Source of the DNA: Candidatus Magasanikiibacteriota bacterium
GTDB lineage: Bacteria > Patescibacteriota > Patescibacteriia > Magasanikbacterales > UBA922
NCBI GenBank assembly: GCA_016193335.1
Contig: JACPSK010000001.1
Coordinates: 343,424-407,423 of the forward strand
DNA: 64,000 nucleotides
Direction: 5' to 3'
Made by a program: the position numbers and the translations under genes. Each line of letters opens with the position of its first letter. Position 1 is the first letter of the stretch. Below the pieces are notes generated by a model that saw only the letters and a list, made by a program, of their open reading frames with translations, searched no databases and was not told the origin of the DNA. Below are positions 19,845 to 63,913 of the stretch, piece by piece.

Positions 19845-19848
19845 TCCG

Positions 19849-43797: not shown

Positions 43798-43981
43798 AGA
43801 TTTCAGTTAATCGAAGTAATCCTACCATTAGGCTTTATTCAGAGTCAAAAAAGTGTCCAACCCATAAAGAGCCCAAAGCTATGTACAAAAAACCAACACT
43901 GTGTTAAAGTCATTTGATTCTTCAAAATCAACGAAGAAGAATCGTGGACCAACCGGGCCGAGTGTCAGGACGGAGGAGAGC

Positions 43982-44665
43982 ATGAACATCAAACCTGTAT
44001 CCGTGGCCTGCCAAGAAGGCGTGGAAGATTGGGAGCGCGAGGCCGTGCTCCATGCCATACGCCTGGTCTTGGAAACCGGACGGGTGTTGCATTCTACGGA
44101 GATCGTGGACTGCGGTCTTTGGCGGAGTGATGCTTGGCTTTCCTCTCAAGGAGAGCTAAGCGCTTGGGAGAGCGTGGATTGGTATATCTCCCACGCTCGG
44201 GCCGAGAGCTCGAGACCCACTCAGCTCAACGGGCACACGCTGATGCGGCTCCTCCTGGCTGAGCCATGCCGACGTGAAAAAGACGGAGACCACTACGACG
44301 CGCTGGTCGTTGCAGACGACATGTACGACGGGGGCGAGACCAACTTCGTGCTCGGCCTCGGAGCCCCGGGACTTGGTACTGTGTTGTCGGTCAACCGTCT
44401 TCGGAGTCTGGAGCCTGAGCTTGCGAGCCTCTGCATCAGCACGCTTGCTCTGCACGAATTCGGACATGCTTGCGGTTTGATCGCGGACGACCGAAGAGAG
44501 AACTTCGAAACCTCGCTCGGACGACATTGCACGAATCGCTGCGTAATGCGCCAGGGCCTCTATGTGCCGCAGGACTGGATCCGCTTCACTGAGGAACGTC
44601 TGGAGGAAGGCCGAAACTTCTGCGCCCAGTGCAGGGACGAGCTGGGCCGTTGGTTTCGGAGATAG
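43982..44665 (+). CDS. Archaemetzincin-like (M54-type) zinc metalloprotease, GC-rich island
   Basis: HEFGHACGL...RHCTNRCVM...FCAQC approximates the archaemetzincin HEXXHXXG...CX3-4CXM...CXXC pattern. About 58% GC versus about 40% in the flanks; opposite strand to the surrounding GT genes; SD ggaggagagcATG. Confidence 0.5.
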   Translation: MNIKPVSVACQEGVEDWEREAVLHAIRLVLETGRVLHSTEIVDCGLWRSDAWLSSQGELSAWESVDWYISHARAESSRPTQLNGHTLMRLLLAEPCRREKDGDHYDALVVADDMYDGGETNFVLGLGAPGLGTVLSVNRLRSLEPELASLCISTLALHEFGHACGLIADDRRENFETSLGRHCTNRCVMRQGLYVPQDWIRFTEERLEEGRNFCAQCRDELGRWFRR

Positions 44666-49774: not shown

Positions 49775-50995
49775 TTAAGTCTGCAAGGCATTCTTTAACT
49801 TTGAAATTTGTTCAATAAGCAAAGTGTTTGCCGCCAAAATGATAATAAAAATAAGAATAAGGGAATTACTGCCCAAAAAAATTCCACCCATAATAGCCAC
49901 TATAGCCGCTCCCAGAGTTGTGACGATATTATCCATGGCTACTCCCACAACAGCATCGCCAATACGACCCTTCGGATGAACTGAAAAATTGTGTACCACG
50001 AGCATTTCGCCAAAACAACCGATAAGCCCGGCCAAGATGCCGGTAAGCACAAAAGGAATATGCGTAATATGCGAAAAAACCTCCATTGCTTTGACCATAC
50101 TTTCCGCGGCAAACAGAATAGCTATACCGGAAAAAACAAGATCAAGCCAAATCCGTGTTCCCTTTTGGCCGGCATAGTATCGTTCCTCTTCCGCAATCTC
50201 TTCAATGGGTGATTCGGGACGATGACTCTTGCGGAAATAATAGAGTACAGCGGCGCAAAGGATAAATAACATGATACCTAAGGGGAGAGTGAGTCTATAC
50301 AAATCACCTGCTATTTTTTCGTCCGCTCCCTTGACCTGGCCGAACAAAACCATACTGACGGCGACAAAAGCGGTGAGGAGAGTTAAGGCCGTTAAAATCC
50401 GAATTGCGGAATCCATTTCTATGAGAGATGGCTTTACCGTATGTTTTTCAAAAGGCGTCAGACTTCCGCCGATTTTGAATGGCGGGAACATAAGCACTGT
50501 TTTGCGCTCTGTGTTTGCCAGGTTCTGTCGGTACATGCACCAGACGGCGTGTACAATATTATAGATATTAGAGCCAAAAGTAGTGGAGGCCGCGATTATA
50601 GAGAGATTGATAGCGCGCACATAATCTATATCTCTTACCTGCAAGGCGGTAAACGCGGCCACCACGCCAATCACCATATCCGGGAAAGCGGTTCCAAAGG
50701 ATTGGAGAAAGCCGCCGGCCAACTTTGTCCTGTCTTTCAGAACATCGGTGGTTTCCTCGATCACTTTCGCCGTTCCCCGAAAAACATAGCCAATCCCAAT
50801 ACCAAAAATTAATATAATGAGCAAGGCCTGGAGCCAGACAAGTTCAGTATTTTCCAAAATTCGATCCACAATTACAAATCGCAGACCAAGAGCCAAAAAC
50901 ACGTACACGACAATTTTAAGAAATTGATTTTTTGTCCGCATAGGATCGGCTATTTTATTCTGGAAAAGTTTTGTTCTAATGCTGTAATTATACAC
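49775..50995 (-). CDS. Ca2+/cation antiporter (CaCA family, YrbG-like) membrane protein
   Basis: Two internal repeats with alpha-repeat-like motifs (GTAFPDMVIGV resembling GTSLPE; FGSNIYNIV resembling GSNIFNIL); about 10 TM. Confidence 0.45.
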   Translation of the reverse strand: MYNYSIRTKLFQNKIADPMRTKNQFLKIVVYVFLALGLRFVIVDRILENTELVWLQALLIILIFGIGIGYVFRGTAKVIEETTDVLKDRTKLAGGFLQSFGTAFPDMVIGVVAAFTALQVRDIDYVRAINLSIIAASTTFGSNIYNIVHAVWCMYRQNLANTERKTVLMFPPFKIGGSLTPFEKHTVKPSLIEMDSAIRILTALTLLTAFVAVSMVLFGQVKGADEKIAGDLYRLTLPLGIMLFILCAAVLYYFRKSHRPESPIEEIAEEERYYAGQKGTRIWLDLVFSGIAILFAAESMVKAMEVFSHITHIPFVLTGILAGLIGCFGEMLVVHNFSVHPKGRIGDAVVGVAMDNIVTTLGAAIVAIMGGIFLGSNSLILIFIIILAANTLLIEQISKLKNALQT

Positions 50996-51047
50996 TTTTT
51001 CACTTTAAGCAAACTATCTTACTCATTCTCTTTATTAAATTAATTAC

Positions 51048-51506
51048 TTAATGGCTTGTTTTCAGAGAATCAACCTTTTCCAAGGACATAGACAATTTCT
51101 GGGCCAGATAAGAAGAAAACGGCAACAAAAAGGTCATCTGCACGATTGGCGCGAGACCAACCCGCAGATACGAGATAATCGGCATTTCGCTGCCGTAGCT
51201 CCACCTTCCAGTAATGATTGCATGCTGTTCTACGAGAATAGCAACCAAAAAACCAAGAATCGCAAGTGCGATAAAATCGGTCCAATTAAATCGTGCAAAT
51301 TCTGTCCGCTTAACCAAAATTATAAAAAATAACGCTCCAATGCTAATTACCACATCACCCAGCGCGCCCCTTAAACACATTATAAAATGATCAGGAAAAG
51401 AAACGAATCCGGTATATAGAGGTGCCTGAATATTTTCCCAAAAAATATGGAGTACAAAGGAAATTACCGCGAAAAGAAAAAGATAATGAAGATTAAGACT
51501 TTTCAT
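51048..51506 (-). CDS. Small integral membrane protein (4 TM), function unknown
   Basis: 152 aa and hydrophobic. Confidence 0.35.
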   Translation of the reverse strand: MKSLNLHYLFLFAVISFVLHIFWENIQAPLYTGFVSFPDHFIMCLRGALGDVVISIGALFFIILVKRTEFARFNWTDFIALAILGFLVAILVEQHAIITGRWSYGSEMPIISYLRVGLAPIVQMTFLLPFSSYLAQKLSMSLEKVDSLKTSH

Positions 51507-51786: not shown

Positions 51787-52437
51787 ATGCTCCAAAACAT
51801 AATATTCCTGGTTGACGTAGACAATACACTCCTCAATAATGACCTCGTAAAACAACAGATTAAAAAATCCCTCGCGGGTGTGCTCGGCGCGGCCGAAGCC
51901 GCTCATTTCTGGCAGCACCATGATGAATTCAGATCATACCAAAAATTGGTCGACTTCCCGGCCATAACGCGTCAGTACTGTTCTGAACAGCATTCGGACA
52001 GATGCGAGATACTGGTGGGTGACATATTCACGGAGATCAGGTTCGCCGATGCCCTCTACCCGAAAGCACTCCACGTGCTACAGCATCTTAAAACACTTGG
52101 CACAGTTCTCATTTTTTCCGAGGGAGACATGGTGTATCAAAAATTGAAAATTGAACAAAGCGGCATTGCCGGGACTGCCGACGGTGTATTGCTCTTTACT
52201 CACAAACTTGACCATTTGCCGGAAATAATCAAGCAATACCAATCTAGCCATTTGGTTTTTATCGACGACCGCGATGACAAACTTATGGAAATTAAAAAAC
52301 AGGCGCCTGAAGCCATAACTATCGTCGTGTGCCAGGGACATTATGCCAAACCGGGTTGTCTCATGGAGCACTCCGCTGACCGGGTGCTTGGTTCGGTGGC
52401 AGATCTACTGAAGCTTACCGCGGAACAACTGCTCTAA
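51787..52437 (+). CDS. HAD-superfamily hydrolase
   Basis: Motif I DVDNTLL at the N-terminus, motif IV-like FIDDRDD; 216 aa. Confidence 0.6.
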   Translation: MLQNIIFLVDVDNTLLNNDLVKQQIKKSLAGVLGAAEAAHFWQHHDEFRSYQKLVDFPAITRQYCSEQHSDRCEILVGDIFTEIRFADALYPKALHVLQHLKTLGTVLIFSEGDMVYQKLKIEQSGIAGTADGVLLFTHKLDHLPEIIKQYQSSHLVFIDDRDDKLMEIKKQAPEAITIVVCQGHYAKPGCLMEHSADRVLGSVADLLKLTAEQLL

Positions 52438-52498: not shown

Positions 52499-54889
52499 TT
52501 ACTTTTTTTTCCTCGGCTTCTTGGCGACATCATGGCCGCCAAATTGATTACGAAGCGCGGACACTACCTGGCCCGTGTAATTCGGCCGTTTTTTTGATCG
52601 ATTACGGAATAAAAGCGCCTCATGAATGACTTTGTCGGCAACGCCCATTTCGTGAGCTGTTTTGACGGTCCAGGCGCCTTCACCAAGCCCGTCAACGGAT
52701 CCAAAAATTGGTTTGAGATTTTCGCCATACATTTCAAAAGCATTTTTAAGCCACCCGATAAGGCGAGACTCTATGACGCTACCCTTGTTGTAAATATCAC
52801 TCACGCGGGTGAGATCAAGTTTAAAATGAGCTTTTTTAAGAATGGTAAATCCCTCCGCGATGGCTTGCATCATTCCGTACTCAATACCATTATGAACCAT
52901 CTTTACAAAATGACCGGCTCCATGACCAGCGAAAAATTGATACCCGCCGGGCAAGGCAAAATCGCGGAATAGTTGTTCTACAAGTTCAAAATCTTTTTGA
53001 ACTCCGCCGATCATAAGACAGGCACCACGGCGGGCGCCTCCGGGGCCACCGGATGTTCCCGCGTCTAAAAATTTGATCCCATATTTTTTTAACTTTGCTG
53101 CGCGTCGGGTAGTGTCCTTGTAATAAGAATTACCACCGTCAATTACCATGTCACCCTTTTTGAGATACTTGGTAAGACCATTTTTACCAAATAAAACTTC
53201 ATCCACCGGCTTTCCGGCCGGGATCATAAGCCACACAATCTTTTTTGGTGACAATTTTTTGATTGCTTCCCCAATACTATATGCCGGCACGAGACCTTCC
53301 TTTGCCAATACTTCGGTGGCATCCGGAGTATGGTTGTATCCAACTACTTTCCAATTTTGATCCATCATTCGCCGCGCCATATTTCCACCCATTTTTCCCA
53401 AACCGATAATAACCATTTCCTTGCATAACCCATTAGTTGGTGCCTTAGTTCCAATTCGATTGGCATCCACAATCATTTTGTTTGTTCCCGGCGCGTAATT
53501 AACAAGTGGAACTATATTTTTTCTCCACGCGTTTTCTACGGGGTCGGTAAACTTCCACTCCGCCATTATTTCTCGTTCGGAAACAAAACTGTCCAGGTCG
53601 CCCATTAAACAATTAAAGATAAGTTCGGCATATTCTTCGACGTATTGAGTTTTTTGCGCGTGCTCGTAAAGAAAAAAATTAAAAACACGTTCTTCAAGTT
53701 TTTTTTCAAAACCCGGAGTCTTGGTCCAGAAGTGAATGGAGATGCGATCTTCCGGCGCCAAACTAAATACCACTTGATTATGTATGTGACGGTCTGGAGC
53801 ACACGCCACGCAGAGGCTTGGATGCTTCATCGTAACCACAATTTCTTTTTTGGACTCAGGGCAACGTTTGCCCGCCTCAAGAGTGACGGGAATACCCTGC
53901 CAAGCTGGATGAGTAAGTTCGGTTTTCAACTTAAAATAGGTTTCAGTCCCGGATTTTGGCGACACCCCCGCGATACTTTTAAAACCGTCGTATTGAGCGC
54001 GGAAGGTATTGTGTTTGATATCTTGGCTTGTCCACAATGCAAGTGATTCCAAAATTTCCGCCCGGCGCGCACGGTGTGTTTCGGCGTTCATATCGCGCGG
54101 TATGTCCATGGTGAGAGTCGCAAGCATTTGCAGTAAATGATTTTGCCCGACATCTTTAAATGCCCCTACGGCATCGTAAAAAGCGCCCCGATCTTCAGCA
54201 CCGATGGTTTCGAGCAGCCGCACGTCGATGCGTTCGATTGAACTTTTATCCCAGGAGCGCTCAAATAAGTTGTTTGAAAAACGAAAATGTAAAATAGCTT
54301 GTACGATCTCTTTGGCTAAATAATGGTCGATTAAGTATAATTGTTTTTCTTTAAAGTATTTTTTTAAAAGAGTAAATAATTTTTTTGCACTTTTTTCATC
54401 AGCCCCAAAAGGCTTCTCAACCAAAAGGCGTGTCCAGCCCAACTCGCCGCCGCAGGGAATATTTAATCCCACCTTAGCCATGTTTTGAAAAATAATTTCA
54501 AAATGTTCCGGTGGTACTGCCAGATAGAATAATTTATTGGTGCACACACCCCACTCATTATCAATATTTTCTAATTCATTTTTAAGATTAGCAAAAGATG
54601 TGGCGTCAGAAAATTCTCCGGTTGTGTAGCTGAATCGTTCTATGATTTCATTAACCATTTTTTTATCGGCCTCGAGTATCCGCTCTTGAATGTCAGCGCG
54701 CATTTGCTTTCGGAATTGATCGTTCGACATTTCTCTTCTCGCCATACCCACCACGCGAAAACGTGTAGGGAGTCGTTTGTTAATATAAAGATGATAGACC
54801 GAAGGCGCGATTTTTTTCTTTACCAAATCTCCGGTTGCGCCAAGCACGACCAGAATAGTGGGGATTTCAATGGTAAGCGGTGCTTTCAT
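52499..54889 (-). CDS. zwf-gnd: Fusion protein: glucose-6-phosphate dehydrogenase (N-terminal, about 480 aa) plus short-form 6-phosphogluconate dehydrogenase (C-terminal, about 300 aa)
   Basis: N-terminus VVLGATGDLVKKKIAPSVYHL and the EKPFG active-site region are G6PD signatures. The C-terminus has a Rossmann IIGLGKMGGNMARR and a 6PGDH catalytic region (GHFVKMVHNGIEYGMMQAIAEGF). One ORF without an internal stop. Confidence 0.7.
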   Translation of the reverse strand: MKAPLTIEIPTILVVLGATGDLVKKKIAPSVYHLYINKRLPTRFRVVGMARREMSNDQFRKQMRADIQERILEADKKMVNEIIERFSYTTGEFSDATSFANLKNELENIDNEWGVCTNKLFYLAVPPEHFEIIFQNMAKVGLNIPCGGELGWTRLLVEKPFGADEKSAKKLFTLLKKYFKEKQLYLIDHYLAKEIVQAILHFRFSNNLFERSWDKSSIERIDVRLLETIGAEDRGAFYDAVGAFKDVGQNHLLQMLATLTMDIPRDMNAETHRARRAEILESLALWTSQDIKHNTFRAQYDGFKSIAGVSPKSGTETYFKLKTELTHPAWQGIPVTLEAGKRCPESKKEIVVTMKHPSLCVACAPDRHIHNQVVFSLAPEDRISIHFWTKTPGFEKKLEERVFNFFLYEHAQKTQYVEEYAELIFNCLMGDLDSFVSEREIMAEWKFTDPVENAWRKNIVPLVNYAPGTNKMIVDANRIGTKAPTNGLCKEMVIIGLGKMGGNMARRMMDQNWKVVGYNHTPDATEVLAKEGLVPAYSIGEAIKKLSPKKIVWLMIPAGKPVDEVLFGKNGLTKYLKKGDMVIDGGNSYYKDTTRRAAKLKKYGIKFLDAGTSGGPGGARRGACLMIGGVQKDFELVEQLFRDFALPGGYQFFAGHGAGHFVKMVHNGIEYGMMQAIAEGFTILKKAHFKLDLTRVSDIYNKGSVIESRLIGWLKNAFEMYGENLKPIFGSVDGLGEGAWTVKTAHEMGVADKVIHEALLFRNRSKKRPNYTGQVVSALRNQFGGHDVAKKPRKKK

Positions 54890-54893
54890 ATGG

Positions 54894-55502
54894 CTACGAA
54901 ATTACGGGCAAACCCGCTAATTCTTCCTTATTAATTTTAATATACAATGGATTTCTTTTCAACGCCGGTTTTCCGTTATGTTCGACCACGTAGTAGGCAA
55001 ACCCGCGCATTTTTTTAACAATTTCGTAATCGGCGTGGCCAGGCATACTAACTGGATTGGCTTCATCGAAATTTACCGGACTGTCGTCGGCCGTGACAAA
55101 ATAAATACTGCCGGTATTAACTGCTAAGTGTCCGTAACCAGGCGACATATAGACGCTGTCGCCGGCTTTGACCGGAATCGCGATAAATTCCTCAATAACA
55201 TCGGGGATGGACTGGCCTTGCTCATCTACCGCCATTTTTTGTTTGAGCACAATCCCCTCGCCAAACAAAACCCAGTAGGTCTCGTCAAGCTGACCGATGT
55301 GATAATGTCCGTACGTTTTGATGTATTCACCACTGATAGTTCCCGGTTCCCACACGGTAATGTTGCGCTGGTCGCTGCCGCCGCGGATCATATAGTAATG
55401 AATGGCCGGGCCGGCGCTATTCGGATCCATAAGAACTTCCCGCATTTTCGCCTGATCACGGGCGGCGTAATGTTTTGGGACGAAAGTGAAATCTATGGAC
55501 AT
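54894..55502 (-). CDS. Cupin-type (archaeal-type) glucose-6-phosphate isomerase
   Basis: TYGHYH...E and SPGYGHLAVN match the cPGI signatures TXGHXHX6-8E and PPXXXHX3N; 202 aa. Confidence 0.5.
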   Translation of the reverse strand: MSIDFTFVPKHYAARDQAKMREVLMDPNSAGPAIHYYMIRGGSDQRNITVWEPGTISGEYIKTYGHYHIGQLDETYWVLFGEGIVLKQKMAVDEQGQSIPDVIEEFIAIPVKAGDSVYMSPGYGHLAVNTGSIYFVTADDSPVNFDEANPVSMPGHADYEIVKKMRGFAYYVVEHNGKPALKRNPLYIKINKEELAGLPVIS

Positions 55503-55511
55503 ATAAAAAAA

Positions 55512-56381
55512 TTATTTGGTTAAGTTATTCCAATCAGCAGAAAATTTAACAATCCCTTTTTGAGTCAAGGGATGGCTGATGTCAAACGTCCACCAAGGAG
55601 CCTCGATGTCATAATTTTCGTATACAATATGTTTGCTACCGAGTACTCCCTCATCAACATCCGGCATGGACGTTGGCACGGGCGAGCCAAGCACGATCCA
55701 ATCTTTGATAATCGAAGTCGGAACAGTAATAATATCGGTTTTGAGATACAATGAATATAATAAATGGTTTACGGTCCGTATGCTTGCGACAAGCAGTTCA
55801 ACGTGTCCATCACCGGACGCATACATTTTTTGAATATTTTTTATTAAATCCATACCGTGTTCGTGCCTGTCGTCAAGCCTGCCGTCAAACGGCGAAATAA
55901 ACACCTGCCCCCTGATTGCTCCGCATGTGGCCGCGTACACGGCCGCCGCCTGTGCTTGCGAAAAGCACAGCGTCATGTTTACGCGTAATCCATCTTTTAC
56001 TAATTTCTCAGCCGCTTCAAGACCGGCGGACGTAATGGGCAGTTTAATATGGGCATTGGGAATCCATTTGAACATTTCTTTTCCTTGAGCAATCATTTCT
56101 TGGGCAGTCGTATGTTCGTCTGCATAGACTTCAATTGAAACCGACCCACGTGGTATCTGTTCGGATATTTTTTCCACGATTCCGCGGTAAAAGGCAAAAA
56201 TTTCTTCACGATTAAATTTTTTACCCACTGTCAAACGTTGCATAGCGTCCGGATTTTTTGCAATCAGCGTCGGATTAGTGGTTTGTCCATCGAGCCATCC
56301 GAGTTCCAAGATTATTTTCTTTGTTTCTTGCGGGTCGCCACTATCGAGAAAAATTTTGGTTGAAAGATTTTTTGGTTTCAT
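55512..56381 (-). CDS. tal: Transaldolase
   Basis: IFLDSGDPQE ... DGQTTNPTLI signature; 289 aa. Confidence 0.75.
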   Translation of the reverse strand: MKPKNLSTKIFLDSGDPQETKKIILELGWLDGQTTNPTLIAKNPDAMQRLTVGKKFNREEIFAFYRGIVEKISEQIPRGSVSIEVYADEHTTAQEMIAQGKEMFKWIPNAHIKLPITSAGLEAAEKLVKDGLRVNMTLCFSQAQAAAVYAATCGAIRGQVFISPFDGRLDDRHEHGMDLIKNIQKMYASGDGHVELLVASIRTVNHLLYSLYLKTDIITVPTSIIKDWIVLGSPVPTSMPDVDEGVLGSKHIVYENYDIEAPWWTFDISHPLTQKGIVKFSADWNNLTK

Positions 56382-56455
56382 ATTTTACATGAAAAAATAA
56401 CATTCGCTGTTGGCGCAGTTTACATGGTCGTGGTGGTTTTTTTACAATTGCTCGT

Positions 56456-56539
56456 CTAGGCTCCAACTTTAGTCGTGCAACCGCAGGTACAGCTGCCGTC
56501 ATTGTTGGTGTGTTCGTGTCCACATTGAGTGCATGTCAT
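56456..56539 (-). CDS. 27-aa Cys-rich (metallothionein-like) peptide
   Basis: Not in the ORF track (shorter than 60 aa). Translates to MTCTQCGHEHTNNDGSCTCGCTTKVGA (6 Cys of 27); shares CGH[DE]H and DG[ST]C motifs with the 60-aa peptide at 58621-58803. Confidence 0.35.
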   Translation of the reverse strand: MTCTQCGHEHTNNDGSCTCGCTTKVGA

Positions 56540-56664: not shown

Positions 56665-57048
56665 TTACTCCCATATGCGTAACAGTTTACCCGTGTATTC
56701 TACCACCACGTATAACCAGACTACATACGCCACCGCGCCAACTGCGAGAGTGATGGCGACGATATTGATAATTTCACTCCGCCGTCGTTTTGCTTGATCC
56801 AGAGTGCAAATGCCTTTGGTTTTTCTTAAGTATAACACAATACTGGCCACGAGTAATAGAAATCCAAGTATTCGAAACCACCACCGATATTCACCATAAA
56901 ATACCGTGCCAAGCGAAGCCGCGAAAGTGACTGAACTTAAACCAAACAAAACCAAAATAACCGGACTCAGGCAACAGAGCGATGCCGCAACGACCGGTAG
57001 CCAGGTGATTTTAAAAATTTCTTTCGCTCTCATATCTTTTTCATACAA
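56665..57048 (-). CDS. MerT-like heavy-metal transport membrane protein
   Basis: TM1 carries SLCCLSPVILVLFG, which matches the MerT ACCLGPLVLIALG vicinal-Cys motif. 3 TM and a loop Cys (GICTLD). Start possibly MRAKEIF at 57033. Confidence 0.45.
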   Translation of the reverse strand: MYEKDMRAKEIFKITWLPVVAASLCCLSPVILVLFGLSSVTFAASLGTVFYGEYRWWFRILGFLLLVASIVLYLRKTKGICTLDQAKRRRSEIINIVAITLAVGAVAYVVWLYVVVEYTGKLLRIWE

Positions 57049-57050
57049 AA

Positions 57051-57803
57051 TTACAAATAATTCAAAAGTTTATCGTAATTAATAAAATTAAACGTCTGAT
57101 AAAAAAAAGACATCCAGGTTCCTAAGTTATTCGTAAGCAATAATATTCCCAAAAAAACTAAAAACACGCCGCCAATGAAAGAAATCGTTTTGAGATATTT
57201 ACTGATTTTGTGAATATACGCGGTGGCTGAACTGAACCCAATGGCCACCAAGAGAAAGGGCACAGCTAGACCAAGAGAAAATACCAAAAGCAGGCCGGCG
57301 CCTTGGAGCACAGTCGTATAGGAAGCAGCCAAGGTGAGCACTGTCCCCAGAATCGGTCCAATACAGGGTGTCCAGCCGAACGCAAAAGCCATGCCAAAAA
57401 TAAGCGAACTAAACGGACGGCCGGGTTTCAAAGCGCTAACGTGAAAGCGTTTCTCGCTATTAAAAAATGGAATCTTGAGGAGGTGCATCATGTAGAGTCC
57501 AAAGATAATGACAAACACTCCACCAATCCGAGCCAGCCAATATCGGTATTCCGCGAGGTATGCTCCGCCAAGTCCAAAGACCGTACCAAGTATCACAAAA
57601 ACCGAACTGAAACCAAGCACGTACAGAAGTCCATTAAAAAATATTTTCCGTCTGACCATTTTGGCTCGGTTTGGATCATTAAGGTCGCCAATCGCGACAC
57701 CGCTGATAAACCCCAAATAACCGGGTACAAGCGGCAAGGTACAGGGCGCGAGAAACGTGAGCACTCCGGCCAGAAATGACGAGAATATAAGAGTAAAATC
57801 CAT
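57051..57803 (-). CDS. ccdA: Cytochrome c-type biogenesis / thiol-disulfide transporter CcdA (DsbD TM domain)
   Basis: Two conserved Cys in TM helices (LAPCTLPLVPGYLGF; GWTPCIGPILG); 6 TM; 250 aa. Confidence 0.8.
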   Translation of the reverse strand: MDFTLIFSSFLAGVLTFLAPCTLPLVPGYLGFISGVAIGDLNDPNRAKMVRRKIFFNGLLYVLGFSSVFVILGTVFGLGGAYLAEYRYWLARIGGVFVIIFGLYMMHLLKIPFFNSEKRFHVSALKPGRPFSSLIFGMAFAFGWTPCIGPILGTVLTLAASYTTVLQGAGLLLVFSLGLAVPFLLVAIGFSSATAYIHKISKYLKTISFIGGVFLVFLGILLLTNNLGTWMSFFYQTFNFINYDKLLNYL

Positions 57804-57805
57804 AC

Positions 57806-57973
57806 TTATTTTTGTTCTTCCGGCAAGGCGTGTTTAATAATATCGAGATTGCAACTCTGATGCGCCGCGCACCAGGCCTCACATTGTTCGGCGATCTTTT
57901 GGTCAACATAATTTAAACCACACACTTCACAGGTATACGCGGGTTGCTGATTTTTTTCAATTTTTTTTACCAT
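57806..57973 (-). CDS. 55-aa zinc-ribbon-like miniprotein coupled to ccdA
   Basis: Not in the ORF track. MVKKIEKNQQPAYTCEVCGLNYVDQKIAEQCEAWCAAHQSCNLDIIKHALPEEQK has CxxC plus a CxxxC pair. Stop lies 2 nt before the ccdA ATG. Confidence 0.4.
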   Translation of the reverse strand: MVKKIEKNQQPAYTCEVCGLNYVDQKIAEQCEAWCAAHQSCNLDIIKHALPEEQK

Positions 57974-57985
57974 ATCAAAATAAAA

Positions 57986-58540
57986 TTACGGTATTAATTT
58001 TTTAACCTTGGCACGCATTTCTTCCAATTCCATTGGGCCCCTTTTGTGGTCAGTAATGTCTCCGCGGACATCAACGAAGATAGTCTCAGGCATTGAAAAA
58101 GCGCCAATTCCCCTATAAAAAGAGTCATCCGGATCAAGTAAATATAAAACATTCCCCAGTCCTGCCAGGCGGTCAGTATATTCCCTGGCGATTTCAAGTG
58201 ATTCACCTCGATTTATAGCGATCACCAAAATTTTTTCGCCAAATTCTTTTTGCAGGGTAATAAAATCCGGCAACTCGTTTTTACAAAATGGACACCATGA
58301 CGCCCAGGAGTTAATTACAAGTGTTTTCCCGACTAAACCGCGTAGACTTACGTCCTTTCCACTGTAATCTTTTAGAACCAGATCGGGAATAGCCGTGCTT
58401 TTTGTTGTTTCACTCGTCGGGGTAGCGGCCGATGGCGGAGTTGAAACTACGGGCTTGCATCCCGCTCCCATGATAACCGATACGGTGAAGAAAGTAGTAA
58501 TGAAAAATATTTTCGACATATATTCTTGACTGTAAATCAT
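57986..58540 (-). CDS. Thiol-disulfide oxidoreductase lipoprotein (TlpA/ResA thioredoxin-like family)
   Basis: Lipoprotein signal (IMGAGCKP) and thioredoxin-fold active site WASWCPFCKNELPD. Confidence 0.8.
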   Translation of the reverse strand: MIYSQEYMSKIFFITTFFTVSVIMGAGCKPVVSTPPSAATPTSETTKSTAIPDLVLKDYSGKDVSLRGLVGKTLVINSWASWCPFCKNELPDFITLQKEFGEKILVIAINRGESLEIAREYTDRLAGLGNVLYLLDPDDSFYRGIGAFSMPETIFVDVRGDITDHKRGPMELEEMRAKVKKLIP

Positions 58541-58620
58541 CCGCCTCCGGTTCTGATTGATCAGAACCAGAAAGAATGTCTAAATTATCCTCAACAGGAT
58601 AATTTAGCTGGCTATTTGTA

Positions 58621-58803
58621 TCAGCAAGAGCACGTTGCGCAGTCGCAGCTGCCGCAAGTCCCATCACCATCTTTATGCTTGTCGTGGCCGCATGATGAAC
58701 ACGAACCACCATCGCTTGTTTTCATGCCACACGTGTGTGTTGCGCCCTCGACTCCGGCGCAGGCCTGGCATGAACCGGCCGGCATTGGTTGAGACTGATC
58801 CAT
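58621..58803 (-). CDS. 60-aa Cys-rich metallothionein-like peptide
   Basis: 13 Cys of 60 aa (SCQAC..THTCG..GSCSSCGHDKHKDGDGTCGSCDCATCSC). Low-complexity metal-binding character; sits in the redox operon. Confidence 0.45.
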   Translation of the reverse strand: MDQSQPMPAGSCQACAGVEGATHTCGMKTSDGGSCSSCGHDKHKDGDGTCGSCDCATCSC

Positions 58804-58846
58804 AGTATATATAGTTACAAGTTACATTAGTAAATTCGACCTTTGG

Positions 58847-59797
58847 CTATTTAAACAGTTCCGTATCCGGATGCGCCGCTGCCCAACTGAACCAGTAGAC
58901 GGCCACGGGGTTCAAACGCTCGAGCGTCCCGTCCGGTTTCTTTTCAAACAATCGGACCGCTTCGATGTCGGTATCGTACTCTCCTACTATTATTTTCCCG
59001 GCAAGGCTGTCTTCAATTTTCCCGGCCCTCTGAATGGCGACCGGATAATAGGCCTTGGCGTGACCATTTACCACCAAACCGAGAACAAGTTCTTTATCGT
59101 CCAATCGATTGTCAGTATGATTTATCGGGAAGTACGTCCCAGACGTGGTGTAATAATTTCCATATGGGTCGGTGCCGTAATCGCGAATCTGACCGGTGTT
59201 ACGAGACAAGACTTCGCCTTGTGGGAATGCTCTTTTCCAAGCGCCAAAGCGAATGATGTCCGATGCTAGTACCTTAAGTTTTGTACCCGTCATGTCCCCG
59301 ACGATCGCCTCACCAAGCACTTGGGACCACAAACTATGTGTTTTTCGGTCATACATCACGAGGTTTGAATTCCATAATTTCCCCGAAGTGCCAAATTCAA
59401 CGCGTTCACCGGCCACTACCGGATCAAATACAATGCCCGAACGACAGAGCGGACAATAGGTCACGAGCACGCGAATATCATCGAACAAGTCATTCACTAT
59501 TTCGTGCCATACCAAAATTTGAAAAGGATAAAAACGAGACCGGCCTTTATAATTAAGTGCCAAACCAATTTCAGCTTCACTTAAAAATTTTTCCGCTTCA
59601 TCAATTGCAACAAATTGCGGGTGGTCAATCGGAGGAATCCCGTCGGGCGGCGGGCCACCGTTCACAATTTCATCCAAAGGAACACTACGCTTTACCCCGC
59701 CAAAAAGACGAACCTGTTTTTCATAACCCCGCCAAACCAGCAAGCTTGGTACCAAGAGCGCAATTGCTATAATGGCATAGGTTATTTTTTGCGACAT
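58847..59797 (-). CDS. DUF3179-family protein (secreted or membrane-anchored)
   Basis: N-terminal TM/signal and the conserved GGPPPDGIPPIDHPQF block typical of DUF3179. Confidence 0.6.
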   Translation of the reverse strand: MSQKITYAIIAIALLVPSLLVWRGYEKQVRLFGGVKRSVPLDEIVNGGPPPDGIPPIDHPQFVAIDEAEKFLSEAEIGLALNYKGRSRFYPFQILVWHEIVNDLFDDIRVLVTYCPLCRSGIVFDPVVAGERVEFGTSGKLWNSNLVMYDRKTHSLWSQVLGEAIVGDMTGTKLKVLASDIIRFGAWKRAFPQGEVLSRNTGQIRDYGTDPYGNYYTTSGTYFPINHTDNRLDDKELVLGLVVNGHAKAYYPVAIQRAGKIEDSLAGKIIVGEYDTDIEAVRLFEKKPDGTLERLNPVAVYWFSWAAAHPDTELFK

Positions 59798-60768
59798 ACA
59801 GATTTTACTTTAGACATGGTCGGCCGGGCATGCCACGGACACAACTCGCCGTGAATCTTGTGATCGTCATAGGCAGACGTAGCCGCCACCGCGCCCGTTG
59901 CCGCCGCGGTAATATCTTGCTTGAAGGCGCCGAAGTGATTCACTGCGTCCCCAGCCGAAAAAACGCCATCCACGTTTGTTCCCATCAGATTGTCAACTTT
60001 TATATAGCCCTTCTCATCGAGCTCAAGCCCAAGTTGTTTAGCCAGTTCGATATTCGGAACCGCGCCAATTTCCACAAATAAGCCATCAACAACAAGTTCA
60101 GATGATCCATTATATTGTTTGGATAGGGTAATTTTTTCCAACTGCTTTTCACCAACTGCCGCAGTGACCTCAGTTTCAAAAAGTACCGTAACCTTATTGC
60201 CGAGAGCCTGCATCCGTTCATAGTTAATGGGATCAGCCTTAACTTCTTTGCCGCGGACAATCAAATAAATTTTACTCACGTATTCGGCGGCTAAATTTAA
60301 TCCTTTCACGGCCGCGTCACCGCTACCAACGAGCGCGATCGTTTTATTTCGGTACAACGGTCCATCGCAGGTCACACAATAACTAATACCATGGCCGGTT
60401 AATTGTTTTTCATTCGGCAACCCCAGTTTACGACGTTCCGCGCCCTGAGCCAGAATAATTTCGTGCGCTTGATATATCTTGTCGCCAGCGGTGACTTCAA
60501 AACAATGCTCGGCACGCTTTATCGACGTAACTTTAGCGTCGACAACAGGTGTATCAAGAGCGACGGCTTGTTCTTTGATAAGACTCATAAGTTCAAAGCC
60601 GTCCACAGCTTTGAACCCTGGATAATTTTCAATCTTCCCCGCCAGCGCAGTTTCGCCACCAAGGGTTTCACCGATCACTACCGTCTTCAAACGATAGCGG
60701 GCGGCGTAAATTGCTGCCGAAAGACCAGCCGCGCCCGAACCAACAATGATCAGATCGTACATTTCCAT
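59782..60768 (-). CDS. trxB: Thioredoxin reductase
   Basis: FAD site DLIIVGSGAAGLSAA, redox-active CVTCDG, NADPH site GSGDAA; 328 aa. Confidence 0.85.
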   Translation of the reverse strand: MEMYDLIIVGSGAAGLSAAIYAARYRLKTVVIGETLGGETALAGKIENYPGFKAVDGFELMSLIKEQAVALDTPVVDAKVTSIKRAEHCFEVTAGDKIYQAHEIILAQGAERRKLGLPNEKQLTGHGISYCVTCDGPLYRNKTIALVGSGDAAVKGLNLAAEYVSKIYLIVRGKEVKADPINYERMQALGNKVTVLFETEVTAAVGEKQLEKITLSKQYNGSSELVVDGLFVEIGAVPNIELAKQLGLELDEKGYIKVDNLMGTNVDGVFSAGDAVNHFGAFKQDITAAATGAVAATSAYDDHKIHGELCPWHARPTMSKVKSVCRKK

Positions 60769-60769
60769 A

Positions 60770-61003
60770 TTAAACGCCGAGTAACGCGCTCAGTTTGGCT
60801 TTGTCAAAACCAAGCACTAATTCACCATCAATATCAATCACCGGCACGCCCATTTGTCCGGAGCGTTTCACCATTTCTTCACCCGCGGCCTGGTCGGCCG
60901 AAACATCTTTTTCTTCGTAGGCGACATTGTGCTCTTTAAAAAAGGCTTTGGCCATTTTGCAAAAACCACAGGTTGGCGTCGTATAGATAAGGACTTTATG
61001 CAT
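60770..61003 (-). CDS. Glutaredoxin/NrdH-like small redoxin
   Basis: VLIYTTPTCGFCKMAK active site; 77 aa. Confidence 0.8.
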   Translation of the reverse strand: MHKVLIYTTPTCGFCKMAKAFFKEHNVAYEEKDVSADQAAGEEMVKRSGQMGVPVIDIDGELVLGFDKAKLSALLGV

Positions 61004-61041
61004 ATGGTTGTCTGTTAAAAAAATAAATAAGTGAAGTAAAT

Positions 61042-61341
61042 TTAGCCGCAGATAAGTTTCTCCAGTTGCTTGGTGAACTCATTTCTGATGAGCATATAGC
61101 AGACCATATTACCAATTCGATGCGTTTCAAAATAGCCGTTGTCGCGCATGATCTGTAGGTGATGCGAAACCGCGTTGACACTCATATCCAAACTTTCGGC
61201 AATGTCCGAAACACAGGCTTTGTCGTACTCAAACATAAAACAAAGAATGCGCATTCGCGTTGGGTCGCCGGCCAGTTCGATCAGACGAGCTTTTTTGATC
61301 AATTCAGGATGAATGGGTATTTTTTTATAGTTTGGTTTCAT
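61042..61341 (-). CDS. ArsR/SmtB-family metalloregulatory transcriptional repressor
   Basis: Winged-HTH LAGDPTRMRILCFMFEYDKACVSDIAESLDMSVNAVSHHLQIMR; start set at MKPNYKK (61341). Confidence 0.75.
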   Translation of the reverse strand: MKPNYKKIPIHPELIKKARLIELAGDPTRMRILCFMFEYDKACVSDIAESLDMSVNAVSHHLQIMRDNGYFETHRIGNMVCYMLIRNEFTKQLEKLICG

Positions 61342-61363
61342 AGTTGCTATGGAGTGGTGATGT

Positions 61364-61405
61364 AAGTATACAGTATTCCAATATACATTGGAATACTGTA
61401 TACTT
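61364..61405. promoter_or_regulatory. 19-4-19 perfect palindromic operator, candidate ArsR-family binding site
   Basis: aagtatacagtattccaat-atac-attggaatactgtatactt. The arms are exact reverse complements, and the site lies 23-64 nt upstream of the ArsR start on the minus strand. Confidence 0.55.
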
Positions 61406-61927
61406 AATCCTGTGGATAAACAAAAAATTACGCCGAATAGCGCAAATTCCCCTGTTTCCTCGGCCATAATGCCGAAATCAAGGACAAAACGCTTTCAATC
61501 AATTAAGACGATCCGAAATTTTACGGCGAAAACAAAAGCGGATTTTGCTATTAATCCAAAAAGTTACTTCTGGTGTATCTATACCACCACGCTCGAACCT
61601 ATTTTAGCAAGAATTTTTGAAATGGACGAACGCTCCGCCCCGCCGCCAGCCGCCGCAAAGCGGCGGCCTGCCTCGCAGAAAAACTTTCTTTACAATTTTT
61701 GATTTTGCGCGCGCCACCACTTTTTCTTCTAAAAGGAAAAGAAAGTTTTTCTGCTCGGCTCCGCGCTCAATCGTGCGGGGCGGCGGGGCTTCGCTTCGGC
61801 TCAGGCGGCTTTTTTTTCGGCGGGCTTACCCTTTCCTTACCCCTCCCACCCTGCGCGGAAAAGGTTAAGGAACTCCCTGTGCATAAAATACTTGTTGCGC
61901 CTTTTCTTTTTGTTTGCTATCATTTGA

Positions 61928-62251
61928 ATGTGTATGCAAATGAAAAATATTCAAAAAATTAGAAAAGAACTGAACGACAGGAAAGCGATTCTCCGCTGTG
62001 CCGAGGAATTTAACATGGTGGGCGACCCGACACGGCTCAAAATTTGCTATCTCTTGTGTCGGCACAAAGAACTATCAGTGGGCGAGATTTCAGAAATTAT
62101 CGGCGTTTCCATTTCGGCTGTTTCTCATACGCTCAAAAAGTTGCAAAAGGCGGGCATGGTTGAAAACCGCCGAGAATTCCGAACGGTATATTACAAACTT
62201 AAACAAACGCCCCTTGCCGATATGCTCAAGGAACGACTCAATACTTTATGA
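61928..62251 (+). CDS. ArsR/SmtB-family regulator (probable regulator of the mer operon)
   Basis: VGDPTRLKICYLLCRHKELSVGEISEIIGVSISAVSHTLKKL winged HTH; first gene of the merT-merA operon. Confidence 0.7.
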   Translation: MCMQMKNIQKIRKELNDRKAILRCAEEFNMVGDPTRLKICYLLCRHKELSVGEISEIIGVSISAVSHTLKKLQKAGMVENRREFRTVYYKLKQTPLADMLKERLNTL

Positions 62252-62278
62252 ATAATCTAAAGTCATCAAAAAAAAAGA

Positions 62279-62500
62279 TTGAGTTGTGCAATTACCGGTA
62301 CGTTACTTGTGGCGCTGTGCTGTTTTACCCCTCTTCTAGTTATCGCGCTGATAACGATAGGACTTGGGGCATTTACACCATATCTTGATTACATTTTATT
62401 TCCAGCATTGGCAGTAATGGTCATTGTGACATATCTCTCGTATCGCAAATACAAAAGCGAGTGCGCCAGTTGCGATGTTATAAGTAGCAATAAACAATAA
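62279..62500 (+). CDS. merT: Short MerT-like mercuric ion transport protein (2 TM)
   Basis: TM1 has ALCCFTPLLVIALI, matching the MerT ACCLGPLVLIALG motif; C-terminal CASC pair. 73 aa (MerT is normally about 116 aa). Confidence 0.5.
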   Translation: MSCAITGTLLVALCCFTPLLVIALITIGLGAFTPYLDYILFPALAVMVIVTYLSYRKYKSECASCDVISSNKQ

Positions 62501-62509
62501 CAAGTAATT

Positions 62510-63913
62510 ATGAAAAAATTTGACTTAATAATTATTGGCGGAGGAGCAGGCGCGTTTGCGGCCGCTATCCGTGCCAATGAGCTGAAAGCCAAAACGGCGA
62601 TTGTGAACGCTGGACTTCCGCTTGGCGGCACCTGCGTAAATGTCGGGTGTGTGCCGTCAAAGACACTTCTGTACGCCGGTGAAATGTTACACCACGCCAA
62701 ACATCACGGCGTTGCCGGTGTTGAGCTTGAAGTGAAAAATTTTGATTTTCAAAAAGTCGTGCAAGACGAACTCTCGCTCGTAGAAAAATTGCGCCAAGAG
62801 AAATACGAGAAGGTGCTAAAAAATTTAGAGTATGTAACAGCAATCGAGGGAAAAGCAAAATTTGTTTCTCAAAATGAGATAGAGGTGAACGGCGAAAGAT
62901 TGAGTGCGAAAAAATTTATTATCGCCGCGGGCTCCACCGCCAATGTGCCGCCGATTGAGAGAATCCGTGAGGTGGGCTTCGTTACGCACATTGAAGCGTT
63001 GCGCCTTGAAAAACAACCGAAGGAATTAGTCGTCATCGGTGCAGGCCCTGTCGGCTTGGAGTTTGCCCAACTGTTCAGCCGTTTTGGCACGAAAGTAACT
63101 ATTTTACAGCGCGGCGATTCAATTTTTCCGCACTCTGAAAAAGCTCTTACTGATCAGCTCGCCGAAATACTTTCAAAAGAAGGAATCATTATCAAAACAA
63201 ATGTTGAGGTGAAAAGTGCGCGTAAAGAGAACGGTAAAAAAGTCATCTTGTACACCATAAACAGCATGCAAGAAGAAACGGCCGCGGACGAGATACTTTT
63301 AGCGGCAGGCAAAACACCTAACACGCGAGGGCTTGGCCTCGATGTTGTTGGCGTTGAAGTGAACAAACAACAAGCGGTCGTCGTAAATCAGCATTTCCAA
63401 ACATCCAATCCGAAAATTTTTGCCGTCGGCGATGTAACGAGCGGACCCTTGCGGCTTGAGCCAACTGCCGGACGCGAGGGCACGCTTGCCGCAGAAAACG
63501 CCCTCAAAGGTACAACGCTTTCCATTGATTACAACGCCGTGCCCTATACTATTTTTACCGACCCCCAGCTTGCCGGTGTCGGCTTTACCGAAGATGAACA
63601 AATGAAGCAAATGGGGGTGTGCGCCTGTCGTACGGTTTCGTTTGAGGATGTGCCAAAAGCGATTATCATGCACCGCACCGAGGGAATGATAAAAATGGCG
63701 ATTCATCCGCAAACAAAGCAAATTCTCGGAGTTCACATTCTCGCGCCAAACGCCGGAGAGCTGATCGCCGAGGCGATGATGCTCATAAAAAACAAAAACA
63801 CGATTGACGATGTAACAAATTCCTTGCCGATGTTCCCAACGCTTTCCGAGGCGATAAAAATCGTCGCGCTTTCTTTTACCAAAGATATTTCTAAATTGAG
63901 TTGTTGTATCTAA
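62510..63913 (+). CDS. merA: Mercuric reductase MerA (core form without the N-terminal HMA domain)
   Basis: FAD site IIIGGGAGAFAAA, redox-active GGTCVNVGCVPSK (identical to the MerA motif), pyridine-nucleotide-disulfide oxidoreductase dimerisation domain. The C-terminus ends in a vicinal Cys pair (KLSCCI), the MerA hallmark. Confidence 0.7.
   Translation: MKKFDLIIIGGGAGAFAAAIRANELKAKTAIVNAGLPLGGTCVNVGCVPSKTLLYAGEMLHHAKHHGVAGVELEVKNFDFQKVVQDELSLVEKLRQEKYEKVLKNLEYVTAIEGKAKFVSQNEIEVNGERLSAKKFIIAAGSTANVPPIERIREVGFVTHIEALRLEKQPKELVVIGAGPVGLEFAQLFSRFGTKVTILQRGDSIFPHSEKALTDQLAEILSKEGIIIKTNVEVKSARKENGKKVILYTINSMQEETAADEILLAAGKTPNTRGLGLDVVGVEVNKQQAVVVNQHFQTSNPKIFAVGDVTSGPLRLEPTAGREGTLAAENALKGTTLSIDYNAVPYTIFTDPQLAGVGFTEDEQMKQMGVCACRTVSFEDVPKAIIMHRTEGMIKMAIHPQTKQILGVHILAPNAGELIAEAMMLIKNKNTIDDVTNSLPMFPTLSEAIKIVALSFTKDISKLSCCI

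Follow-up and report, generated by a model that had tools for sequence, protein, structure and literature searches.

The window analyzed in the present study, a 64-kb stretch from a genome of Candidatus Magasanikbacteria (CPR), contains three closely spaced genes on the minus strand, with intergenic gaps of 9 and 4 nt by their ORF coordinates. The first gene of this operon (55512..56381) encodes a transaldolase (Tal) of 289 aa, the second (54894..55502) a putative cupin-type phosphoglucose isomerase (cPGI) of 202 aa, and the third (52499..54889) is a single ORF for a 796-aa protein that joins Zwf (G6PD) to Gnd (6PGDH). The ORF positions and Pfam matches agree with the original prediction of an operon with transaldolase and cupin PGI genes 5' of the fusion. 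The tal-cPGI-zwf::gnd arrangement is lineage-specific. Other neighbors were found at six other fusion loci, and a functional link of tal and cPGI with zwf::gnd is therefore drawn from this lineage alone. The operon is located just downstream of a MerA/thioredoxin-reductase cluster of NADPH consumers, from which it is separated by 283 nt; neither a terminator nor a convincing promoter was predicted in this gap. The MerA neighbor scored 524 bits (cutoff 454), and the other redox neighbors are a thioredoxin-reductase-like enzyme, a glutaredoxin (Grx), a Redoxin protein, and DsbD. The other fusion loci are flanked by genes for ferric-reductase/NAD_binding_1, Cyt-b5, RibD_C, DsbD, and YjeF_N proteins. 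Based on their adjacency, the operon may be functionally linked to the MerA/thioredoxin cluster.

The 796-aa protein consists of a complete Zwf module (aa 11-470; 53480..54859, minus strand), a variable linker of approximately 20 aa (aa 471-490; 53420..53479, minus strand), and a complete short-form Gnd module (aa 491-791; 52517..53419, minus strand). The profile scores of both halves exceeded their cutoffs, as expected for a complete Zwf joined to a short-form Gnd in one ORF. The Zwf module matched TIGR00871 (zwf, 486 positions) over aa 11-470 with 416.9 bits, only just over the cutoff of 400.6, and the Pfam domains G6PD_N and G6PD_C with 184.5 and 221.8 bits, respectively. It carries the fingerprints GATGDL (17-22), EKPFG (158-162), LIDHYLAKE (186-194), and H251. 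R51, EKPFG, D188/H189/Y190/K193, H251, and K341 align to R46, E147-K148-P149, D177/H178/Y179/K182, H240, and K343 of Leuconostoc mesenteroides G6PD. In an alignment of 47 homologues, in which the catalytic residues of both the Zwf and Gnd halves are conserved, GATGDL and these residues (including H189, Y190, K193, and H251) are invariant except for R51 (42/47) and D188 (at least 90%). Arg51 was counted as evidence for the use of NADP. The Zwf module most likely oxidizes glucose-6-phosphate and is a probable producer of NADPH. The fused family also has the Cys pairs C116/C146 and C360-x-x-C363, which are common to only part of its unfused relatives.

Across aa 491-791, the Gnd module matched TIGR00872 (gnd_rel) with 337.2 bits (cutoff 297.2) and NF007161 with 346.5 bits (cutoff 271), and the Pfam domains NAD_binding_2 and 6PGD were both present. 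It contains the GHFVKMVHNGIEYG motif. We considered two related families as alternatives. The scores stayed far below the cutoffs, at 89.5 bits for 3-hydroxyisobutyrate dehydrogenase (HIBADH; cutoff 291.6) and 92.9 bits for tartronate semialdehyde reductase (cutoff 340.75). The C-terminal half was accordingly assigned to 6PGDH rather than to the beta-hydroxyacid dehydrogenases, as originally predicted. Catalytic residues were mapped by alignment onto solved 6PGDHs, and N587, S613, K663, H666, N667, E670, Y671, R762, R780, and H786 are invariant in all 47 homologues. We take the catalytic Lys/Glu pair and the 6PG-binding Arg and His of the C-terminal tail to be the equivalents of K183, E190, R446, and H452 in the sheep enzyme. 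The PF00393 match spans only positions 1-117 of 290, and the module therefore has a single helical domain, as in short-form (approximately 300-aa) Gnd.

Mean column conservation was 0.33 in the linker, whereas the modules on either side reached 0.64 and 0.72. In the AF2 model of the 796-aa protein (mean pLDDT 87.1, pTM 0.62), pLDDT was below 50 at residues 482-486, and the linker is predicted to be flexible and disordered. At least 120 full-length fusion homologues with 52-70% identity were found in CPR/Patescibacteria and a few other phyla. Both domains were present in 18 of the best 150 representatives in a 50%-identity library, and their order was always Zwf then Gnd.

The 202-aa protein matched PF06560 (GPI) with 70 bits (cutoff 20.7; profile positions 51-173 of 182). 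Both of the cPGI signatures noted in the original prediction are present, as T63-x-G65-H66-x-H68...E74 and P122-G-Y-G-H125-x-x-x-N129. A phmmer search against the PDB returned only archaeal cPGIs (1j3p, E 7.5e-8). The metal ligands H66, H68, E74, and H125 align to H88, H90, E97, and H136 of the Pyrococcus furiosus enzyme, and the substrate/phosphate residues T63, Y76, H156, and Y159 to T85, Y99, H158, and Y160. Furthermore, the top 12 Foldseek matches of its AF2 model (pLDDT 77.5) in the PDB were all cPGI-derived, comprising 11 cPGI entries and one engineered protein (3sxw), with E-values of 1e-10 to 2e-9 and TM scores of 0.61-0.68. Homologues occur in glycolytic and mannose-phosphate gene contexts. 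The assignment as a cPGI is thus well supported by the Pfam match, the active-site residues, the predicted fold, and the gene neighborhoods. However, the suggestion that this gene reflects lateral acquisition, understood as a recent event, did not hold. The CPR cPGI family is large and highly conserved (3074 database matches, the best 120 of which are 71-87% identical), the G+C content along the operon is unremarkable, and such enzymes have already been reported. Cupin PGIs were known from bacteria as early as Hansen et al. 2005, and Jaffe 2020 (PMC7304191) had already described CPR sequences of PF06560 as sister to the archaeal PGIs.

The transaldolase matched PF00923 (TAL_FSA) over its full length with 153 bits, whereas no NCBIfam equivalog cutoff was reached (best 132 bits versus 246), and the protein was therefore not placed in a subfamily. 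Its best PDB matches were the short transaldolases 9ui2, 1wx0, and 3r8r (E 1e-28), and it is of the short type (TalC/Bacillus subtilis-like) with approximately 40 additional residues near the C-terminus. The Schiff-base lysine is located in HIKLP, which aligns to VKLP of 9ui2. SPFDGR aligns to SPFLGR, with Phe, not Tyr, at the site that discriminates Tal from FSA; Tyr rather than Phe at this site is reportedly typical of F6P aldolases.

The original prediction noted no separate 6-phosphogluconolactonase (6PGL) gene in the window, and the Pfam scan of the 64 kb likewise did not detect PF01182. The direct scan covered approximately 43 of the 46 window ORFs with 110 aa or more, but not the 2959-aa ORF at 20930-29809; three more ORFs are glycosyl/sugar transferases according to precomputed Pfam matches for the same DNA (L081). 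Since the contig is at least 687 kb long, this absence says little about the genome. PF01182 did not match the 796-aa protein at E <= 0.01, its 20-aa linker is too short for a domain, and the fusion is not of the G6PD::6PGL type.

We consider it probable, based on these sequence features, that tal, cPGI, and zwf::gnd form a real co-transcribed pentose phosphate pathway (PPP) module, in which a bifunctional 796-aa enzyme supports a cyclic supply of NADPH and pentoses. The N-terminal module would convert glucose-6-phosphate to 6-phosphogluconolactone, which may hydrolyze spontaneously or through a lactonase whose gene lies outside this region, and the C-terminal module would convert 6-phosphogluconate to ribulose-5-phosphate by oxidative decarboxylation. 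Each of the two oxidations most likely yields NADPH. Fructose-6-phosphate from transaldolase and the non-oxidative branch would be returned to glucose-6-phosphate by the cupin PGI, and the three genes together may thus supply what a cyclic pathway needs for NADPH and pentoses. The adjoining MerA, thioredoxin-reductase-like enzyme, glutaredoxin, and DsbD/redoxin may draw on this NADPH. The Zwf and Gnd modules presumably fold independently on a flexible, poorly conserved linker. Therefore, the chief effect of the fusion is most likely obligatory 1:1 co-expression and co-localization in a streamlined genome, rather than the formation of a physical substrate tunnel.

Several other explanations need to be weighed against this one. 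An assembly, frameshift, or sequencing artefact may have united two separate genes. In a CPR relative (L002, Moraniibacteriota), separate zwf and gnd genes are adjacent in this order with a 12-nt spacer and two in-frame stops, such that one sequencing error might, in theory, make separate genes look fused. However, the identical 796-aa protein was encoded on three contigs from different sources, including NCBI GCA_964404105.1 and Logan SRR12113428 (the same contig in six samples). At least 120 independent clusters (771-856 aa) carry the same four-domain architecture, and the linker remains in frame with a similar length (Y465-G496 spacing of 25 to 34 residues) in the 47 homologues. The junction, originally placed at approximately 53450, falls within the linker, and the same uninterrupted frame across many independent assemblies answers the concern about an artefact at this position. 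This explanation, which we regard as next to impossible, has effectively been refuted. It is more conceivable, although still improbable, that the 202-aa cupin is another sugar-phosphate isomerase or epimerase, such as phosphomannose isomerase, or a non-catalytic cupin. Its identity to characterized archaeal cPGIs is just 21-24%, NCBIfam models did not match it, its N-terminal 45 residues differ, it has two insertions, and mannose-phosphate genes adjoin some homologues. On the other hand, all four metal ligands and the phosphate/substrate residues of the P. furiosus enzyme are invariant in 27 homologues, and the fold search places cPGIs approximately four orders of magnitude in E-value before other cupins, the next family being the CapF cupin (E 9e-6). 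Moreover, one homologue is embedded in a glycolytic cluster (L092), between PGM/IMPase/PMI and GAPDH-PGK-PPDK-enolase. A separate MannoseP_isomer cupin adjoins the cPGI homologue at this locus and in L093, which argues that the phosphomannose isomerase is a different protein.

The Gnd module may instead depend on NAD+, in which case the enzyme would serve catabolism and the supply of NADH rather than that of NADPH. The best equivalog name, that of TIGR00872, is [quoted passage not shown], position 520 is His rather than Arg, and the solved short forms include the NAD-dependent 8ihe. However, NF007161, which is named "NADP-dependent", gave the higher score, and the neighboring consumers use NADPH. 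The cofactor loop is N519-H520-T521, with N519 at the end of strand beta2 (family: N 43/47, R/K 40/47). Asn at this position is NADP-like and is found in the NADP-dependent long form 2w8z (N-R-L), whereas the solved short forms have Asp (8ihe D-H-D, 4e21 D-L-N, 6xeq D-R-T, and 6vpb D-R-D). We consider NAD+ dependence to be unlikely; however, a preference for NADP is less certain for this protein than for the family because its loop is N-H-T and not the N-R-T/S of the family. The original proposal that the fusion would channel the production of NADPH is overstated and is only an inference. Step 1 yields the lactone, whereas step 3 uses a different substrate, and direct tunneling is therefore unexpected without a hydrolysis step. 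A true channelling device, in which the lactone is passed on or hydrolyzed on the enzyme and a dedicated lactonase is unnecessary, would allow two domains to perform all three oxidative steps. A 6PGL gene was not detected in the window or beside the fusion in seven genomic contexts, and the Zwf-to-Gnd order is invariant. Both parent enzymes, G6PD and 6PGDH, are oligomers, and an oligomeric assembly could bring the two active sites together. However, a lactonase, another domain, or a conserved motif was not found in the 20-aa linker in the sequence or the 47-homologue alignment. Given the predicted disorder of the linker and a low pTM despite the high pLDDT, the model does not confidently fix the inter-domain geometry. 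Furthermore, 6-phosphogluconolactone hydrolyzes spontaneously, and, to our knowledge, many bacteria have no annotated 6PGL. Such a device is accordingly a doubtful proposition. We give slightly less credence still to the speculation that the CPR Zwf::Gnd is a self-sufficient, redox-regulated oxidative PPP machine, in which the fusion replaces the lactonase through on-enzyme or proximity turnover and C116/C146 and C360-x-x-C363 act as thioredoxin-sensitive switches. These switches would tie the output of NADPH to the adjacent thiol and mercury stress systems.

The co-transcribed PPP module with a bifunctional Zwf::Gnd, which we favor, combines familiar components. The 202-aa cPGI has the fold, metal ligands, and substrate residues of the archaeal cPGIs (P. 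furiosus 1x82/1qxr and Thermococcus litoralis 1j3p); however, it is approximately 22% identical to them, mesophilic, and bacterial, its N-terminus is shorter and different, and it has two insertions. It shares its Pfam family with the CPR PGIs of Jaffe 2020 (PMC7304191), in which approximately 15 genomes had the cupin form as the sole PGI, while approximately 3000 relatives were found here. We did not find a description of a bacterial Zwf::Gnd fusion in the literature, where a diatom gene of disputed status is the sole precedent. The Phaeodactylum tricornutum G6PD/6PGD (protein id 54663; Kroth 2008, PMC2173943; Stover 2011, PMC3148214) likewise joins these two enzymes in one frame with a short spacer, the naming G6PD/6PGDH in both papers suggests the same domain order, and it was likewise interpreted as coupling two NADPH-forming steps. 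However, it is eukaryotic and limited to one species, its gene model was disputed and later split by JGI, and Stover 2011 (PMC3148214) reported no other such fusion in nr. Compared by published descriptions, the present fusion is bacterial, has a short-form Gnd of approximately 300 aa, and occurs in well over 100 sequence clusters. Zwf::Gnd is an under-described architecture built from ordinary enzymes and is modestly interesting. The G6PD::6PGL enzymes (Plasmodium GluPho, Giardia/Trichomonas, and vertebrate H6PD) similarly combine G6PD with another oxidative PPP enzyme and are thought to increase pathway efficiency. However, their partner is the lactonase of step 2 (PF01182), such that the reactions are consecutive, whereas Zwf::Gnd joins steps 1 and 3 and lacks step 2. 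Many bacteria link the same enzyme families genetically without fusing them, as adjacent separate short gnd and zwf genes. Among 80 sampled GTDB loci, gnd preceded zwf in 59 and zwf preceded gnd in 7, one of which is the Moraniibacteriota locus described above; the commonest order of the unfused pairs is opposite to that of the fusion.

The operon consists of three ORFs on the minus strand, in the order transaldolase (Tal; 289 aa, 55512-56381), cupin-type phosphoglucose isomerase (cPGI; 202 aa, 54894-55502), and zwf::gnd (796 aa, 52499-54889), exactly as located in the original prediction. Since the intergenic gaps are only 9 and 4 nt, the three genes are almost certainly co-transcribed and translationally coupled. 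The G+C content of this region (0.44-0.46) does not differ from that of the remaining window (0.42-0.49). A conserved tal-cPGI-zwf::gnd operon was rejected, as the arrangement was absent from six other fusion loci and three other cPGI loci. A HAD-superfamily hydrolase of 216 aa (51787-52437, plus strand; PF00702, 29 bits) is convergent with the 3' end of zwf::gnd, at a distance of 61 nt. Its family is not a lactonase family, and it might act as a sugar-phosphate phosphatase.

Both halves of the 796-aa protein were identified by profile searches. Pfam placed G6PD_N at aa 14-197, G6PD_C at aa 201-470, NAD_binding_2 at aa 494-645, and the first 117 of the 290 profile positions of the 6PGD C-terminal domain at aa 659-769. 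Among NCBIfam models, the Zwf half (aa 11-470) matched the zwf equivalog TIGR00871 (416.9 bits, cutoff 400.6), and the Gnd half (aa 491-791) matched the short-form 6-phosphogluconate dehydrogenase (6PGDH) models TIGR00872 (337.2 bits, cutoff 297.2) and NF007161 (346.5 bits, cutoff 271). A better match of the C-terminal half to beta-hydroxyacid dehydrogenases would have argued against Gnd. However, 3-hydroxyisobutyrate dehydrogenase and tartronate semialdehyde reductase reached only approximately 90 bits, far under their cutoffs, and the short-form Gnd identity stands. Alignment to solved glucose-6-phosphate dehydrogenases (G6PDs) showed that the Zwf module has the active-site features GATGDL, R51, EKPFG, D188/H189/Y190/K193, H251, and K341; the equivalent residues of Leuconostoc mesenteroides G6PD are R46, E147-P149, D177/H178/Y179/K182, H240, and K343. 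The Gnd half carries the GHFVKMVHNGIEYG motif, and N587, S613, K663, H666, N667, E670, Y671, R762, R780, and H786 are invariant in 47/47 homologues. Because the active-site residues of both modules are conserved, both halves look catalytically intact at the sequence level.

An assembly artefact joining two separate genes was rejected. The identical 796-aa protein is present on three contigs from different sources, one of which was seen in six samples; its NCBI annotation assigns it to a Candidatus Magasanikbacteria MAG. Furthermore, at least 120 clusters in the protein database (771-856 aa, 52-70% identity) carry all four domains. Recurrence in independent assemblies and in so many homologues confirms that the predicted fusion is genuine. 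The clusters span the candidate phyla radiation (CPR), including Magasanik-, Peregrini-, Parcu-, Levy-, Lipton-, Taylor-, and Portnoybacteria. Homologues also occur in Omnitrophota and Coriobacteriia MAGs with neighbourhoods unlike those of CPR. The fusion at the Omnitrophota locus (L089) is 66% identical to the window protein and is neighboured by AsmA and radical SAM genes, while that at the Coriobacteriia locus (L090) is 53% identical and is neighboured by AFOR and Fe-ADH genes. Since these neighbourhoods are clearly non-CPR, they suggest that the fused gene travels between phyla. In a 50%-identity library, 18 of the best 150 representatives contained both modules, 13 of them at full length and with identity down to 36%, and the order was Zwf to Gnd in every representative with both.

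Conservation is lowest in the inter-module segment (column mean of 0.33 vs 0.64 and 0.72 in the modules), and the spacing between Y465 and G496 ranges from 25 to 34 residues among the 47 homologues. Within the otherwise confident AlphaFold model (mean pLDDT 87.1), this segment is also the sole internal region where pLDDT drops under 50; the pTM of the model (0.62) indicates that the inter-domain geometry is not fixed. A search for an internal promoter for a separate Gnd gave 8 promoter-like matches against 7.9 expected from shuffles, and terminator-like matches numbered 8 against 6.2, so that neither exceeded expectation. Residue 491, a Met in the window protein, is not conserved across the fusion family.

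Gene arrangement was surveyed in 80 species-representative GTDB loci listed after seeding on Gnd motifs. Separate genes were found as gnd then zwf at at least 59 loci and as zwf then gnd at at least 7, and the fused gene at at least 1; CPR is under-sampled here, and the counts are not frequencies. The commonest bacterial arrangement among these loci is, therefore, the reverse of the fusion order. One of the zwf-then-gnd loci belongs to the CPR lineage Moraniibacteriota; its genes are separated by 12 nt that contain two in-frame stops, an arrangement that could plausibly either precede the fusion or result from a fission. To weigh a single against a multiple origin of the fusion, the Zwf and Gnd modules of the 50%-identity representatives were placed in neighbour-joining trees; no bipartition parted fused from unfused sequences, and many Zwf-only entries may be fragments at contig ends. 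Other architectures were also noted among database proteins: a fusion of a standard SIS-type PGI with a short-form Gnd (P0372, 735 aa; PF00342, PF03446, and PF00393), a G6PD preceded by a weak PF01182 (lactonase) segment (P0378), and a Zwf followed by a C-terminal region of approximately 410 aa without a Pfam match (P0254, 868 aa).

[quoted passage not shown] A Pfam scan that covered about 43 of the 46 window ORFs with 110 aa or more found no transketolase, Rpi, or Rpe, and these enzymes must, therefore, be encoded elsewhere. In agreement with the original prediction, no PF01182 lactonase was found in the window, nor was one found beside the fusion in seven contexts. At the Coriobacteriia locus, a divergent Amidohydro_2 gene adjoins the fusion; this superfamily includes sugar lactonases. 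Since the fusion joins steps 1 and 3 and lacks step 2, direct channelling is not straightforward, and co-expression and proximity of the two dehydrogenases provide the conservative explanation. The fusion may instead be a channelling device that operates without a lactonase, which we regard as a minority possibility.

The original prediction also assigned NADPH production to the fusion. In the solved short-form 6PGDHs, strand beta2 ends in Asp (D-H-D in 8ihe, which its depositors named NAD+-dependent, D-L-N in 4e21, D-R-T in 6xeq, and D-R-D in 6vpb), whereas one NADP-dependent long form has N-R-L. At this site, 43/47 members of the fusion family carry Asn, and the next residue is Arg or Lys in 40/47; N-H-T is the corresponding sequence of the window protein. 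In the Zwf module, the 2'-phosphate-binding Arg of L. mesenteroides G6PD is retained. Because of the beta2-end Asn and this Arg, NADPH appears to be the likelier product of the fusion, although this assignment is not secure for the window protein itself. Additionally, two pairs of cysteines in the Zwf module (C116, C146, C360, and C363) have no counterpart in solved G6PDs; each residue is present in 42-46 of the 47 fusion members. Among 145 related Zwf domains, these cysteines are gained and lost pairwise (CCCC, CC--, and --CC patterns), which suggests putative regulatory disulfides or a metal site or half-sites.

A mercury/thiol-redox cluster (56665-63913) lies directly upstream of the operon, on the same strand except for a divergent, bona fide MerA (62510-63913, plus strand; TIGR02053, 524 bits, cutoff 454). 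The minus-strand members are an ArsR/SmtB regulator (61042-61467), a glutaredoxin (60770-61003), a thioredoxin-reductase-like flavoprotein (59782-60768; TIGR01292, 296 bits, under the cutoff of 343), a DUF3179 protein (58847-59797), a TlpA-like redoxin (57986-58540), CcdA/DsbD (57051-57803), and a weak MerT-like membrane protein (56665-57048). Every member of the cluster is linked to NADPH or to thiols, and other fusion loci likewise have redox proteins or users of NAD(P)H on their flanks. As a matter of adjacency only, this fits a role in NADPH supply. A small ORF rich in Cys, MTCTQCGHEHTNNDGSCTCGCTTKVGA, was read by eye in the 283 nt that separate the MerT-like gene from tal (approximately 56454-56536, minus strand); it may encode a metal-binding peptide or be due to chance. 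Elsewhere in the window, a single 2959-aa ORF (20930-29809, minus strand), with a neighbouring 234-aa ORF that matches the bacterial TSP3 repeat, may encode a giant surface protein; such proteins are common in CPR genomes. Sizeable ORFs (145-667 aa) without any Pfam match are present at 15233-16966, 19185-20791, 36418-39933, 43901-44665, and 49775-51506.

The PGI identity of the 202-aa cupin is well supported. It passed PF06560 (70 bits vs 20.7), no NCBIfam model matched it, and its PDB matches were archaeal cupin PGIs only. Residues H66, H68, E74, H125, T63, Y76, H156, and Y159 align with H88, H90, E97, H136, T85, Y99, H158, and Y160 of the Pyrococcus furiosus enzyme, and all eight metal-ligand and substrate-binding residues are invariant in 27 homologues. 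The best folds for its AlphaFold model (pLDDT 77.5) were the PGIs of T. litoralis and P. furiosus; the top 12 comprised 11 cPGI entries and one engineered protein (E-values of approximately 1e-10, TM 0.61-0.68), and other cupins trailed by four orders of magnitude in E-value. A 75%-identical homologue sits within a PGM-IMPase-PMI-cPGI-GAPDH-PGK-PPDK-enolase cluster, and another adjoins ManC. The transaldolase is of the short type (nearest solved relatives 9ui2, 1wx0, and 3r8r), with the Schiff-base lysine conserved and an insertion of approximately 40 residues close to the C terminus.

Lateral acquisition of the cPGI had also been proposed. Jaffe et al. (2020) reported PF06560 PGIs scattered over CPR as a sister clade to the archaeal enzymes (PMC7304191), and bacterial cupin PGIs date from Hansen et al. 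(2005), as cited therein. Since the family is large and very conserved (3074 matches, the best 120 at 71-87% identity), the cPGI is an established CPR gene and not a recent import, and it brings nothing new beyond Jaffe et al. A cPGI 71% identical to that of the window is labelled Candidatus Nitrosocosmicus, an archaeal MAG (P0216); this reflects either contamination during binning or recent gene transfer between archaea and CPR. The original prediction was correct as an observation, including all three gene identities. Its interpretation was borne out in part.

The fusion can serve to correct automated pathway calls in CPR genomes. Because one gene annotated as "G6PD" also encodes a predicted 6PGDH, calls of an incomplete oxidative PPP may be wrong. 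Zwf::Gnd is also a natural test case for whether fusing non-consecutive pathway steps gives a kinetic benefit, and a compact candidate two-NADPH module for metabolic engineering.

Both dehydrogenases are textbook enzymes, and fusions of G6PD with the lactonase are known in this pathway. The JGI automatic product name already gives both activities. The sole described G6PD-6PGD fusion is a disputed gene of the diatom Phaeodactylum tricornutum, the model of which was later split (PMC2173943, PMC3148214); in 2011, its authors saw no second example in nr (PMC3148214), and a paper from 2024 described natural fusions as restricted to enzymes 1 and 2 (PMC10909971). Our literature search found no description of a bacterial or CPR Zwf-Gnd fusion. 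Zwf::Gnd is a genuine and widespread bacterial fusion, apparently not described before, that parallels a known kind of fusion in this pathway and is composed of ordinary enzymes.
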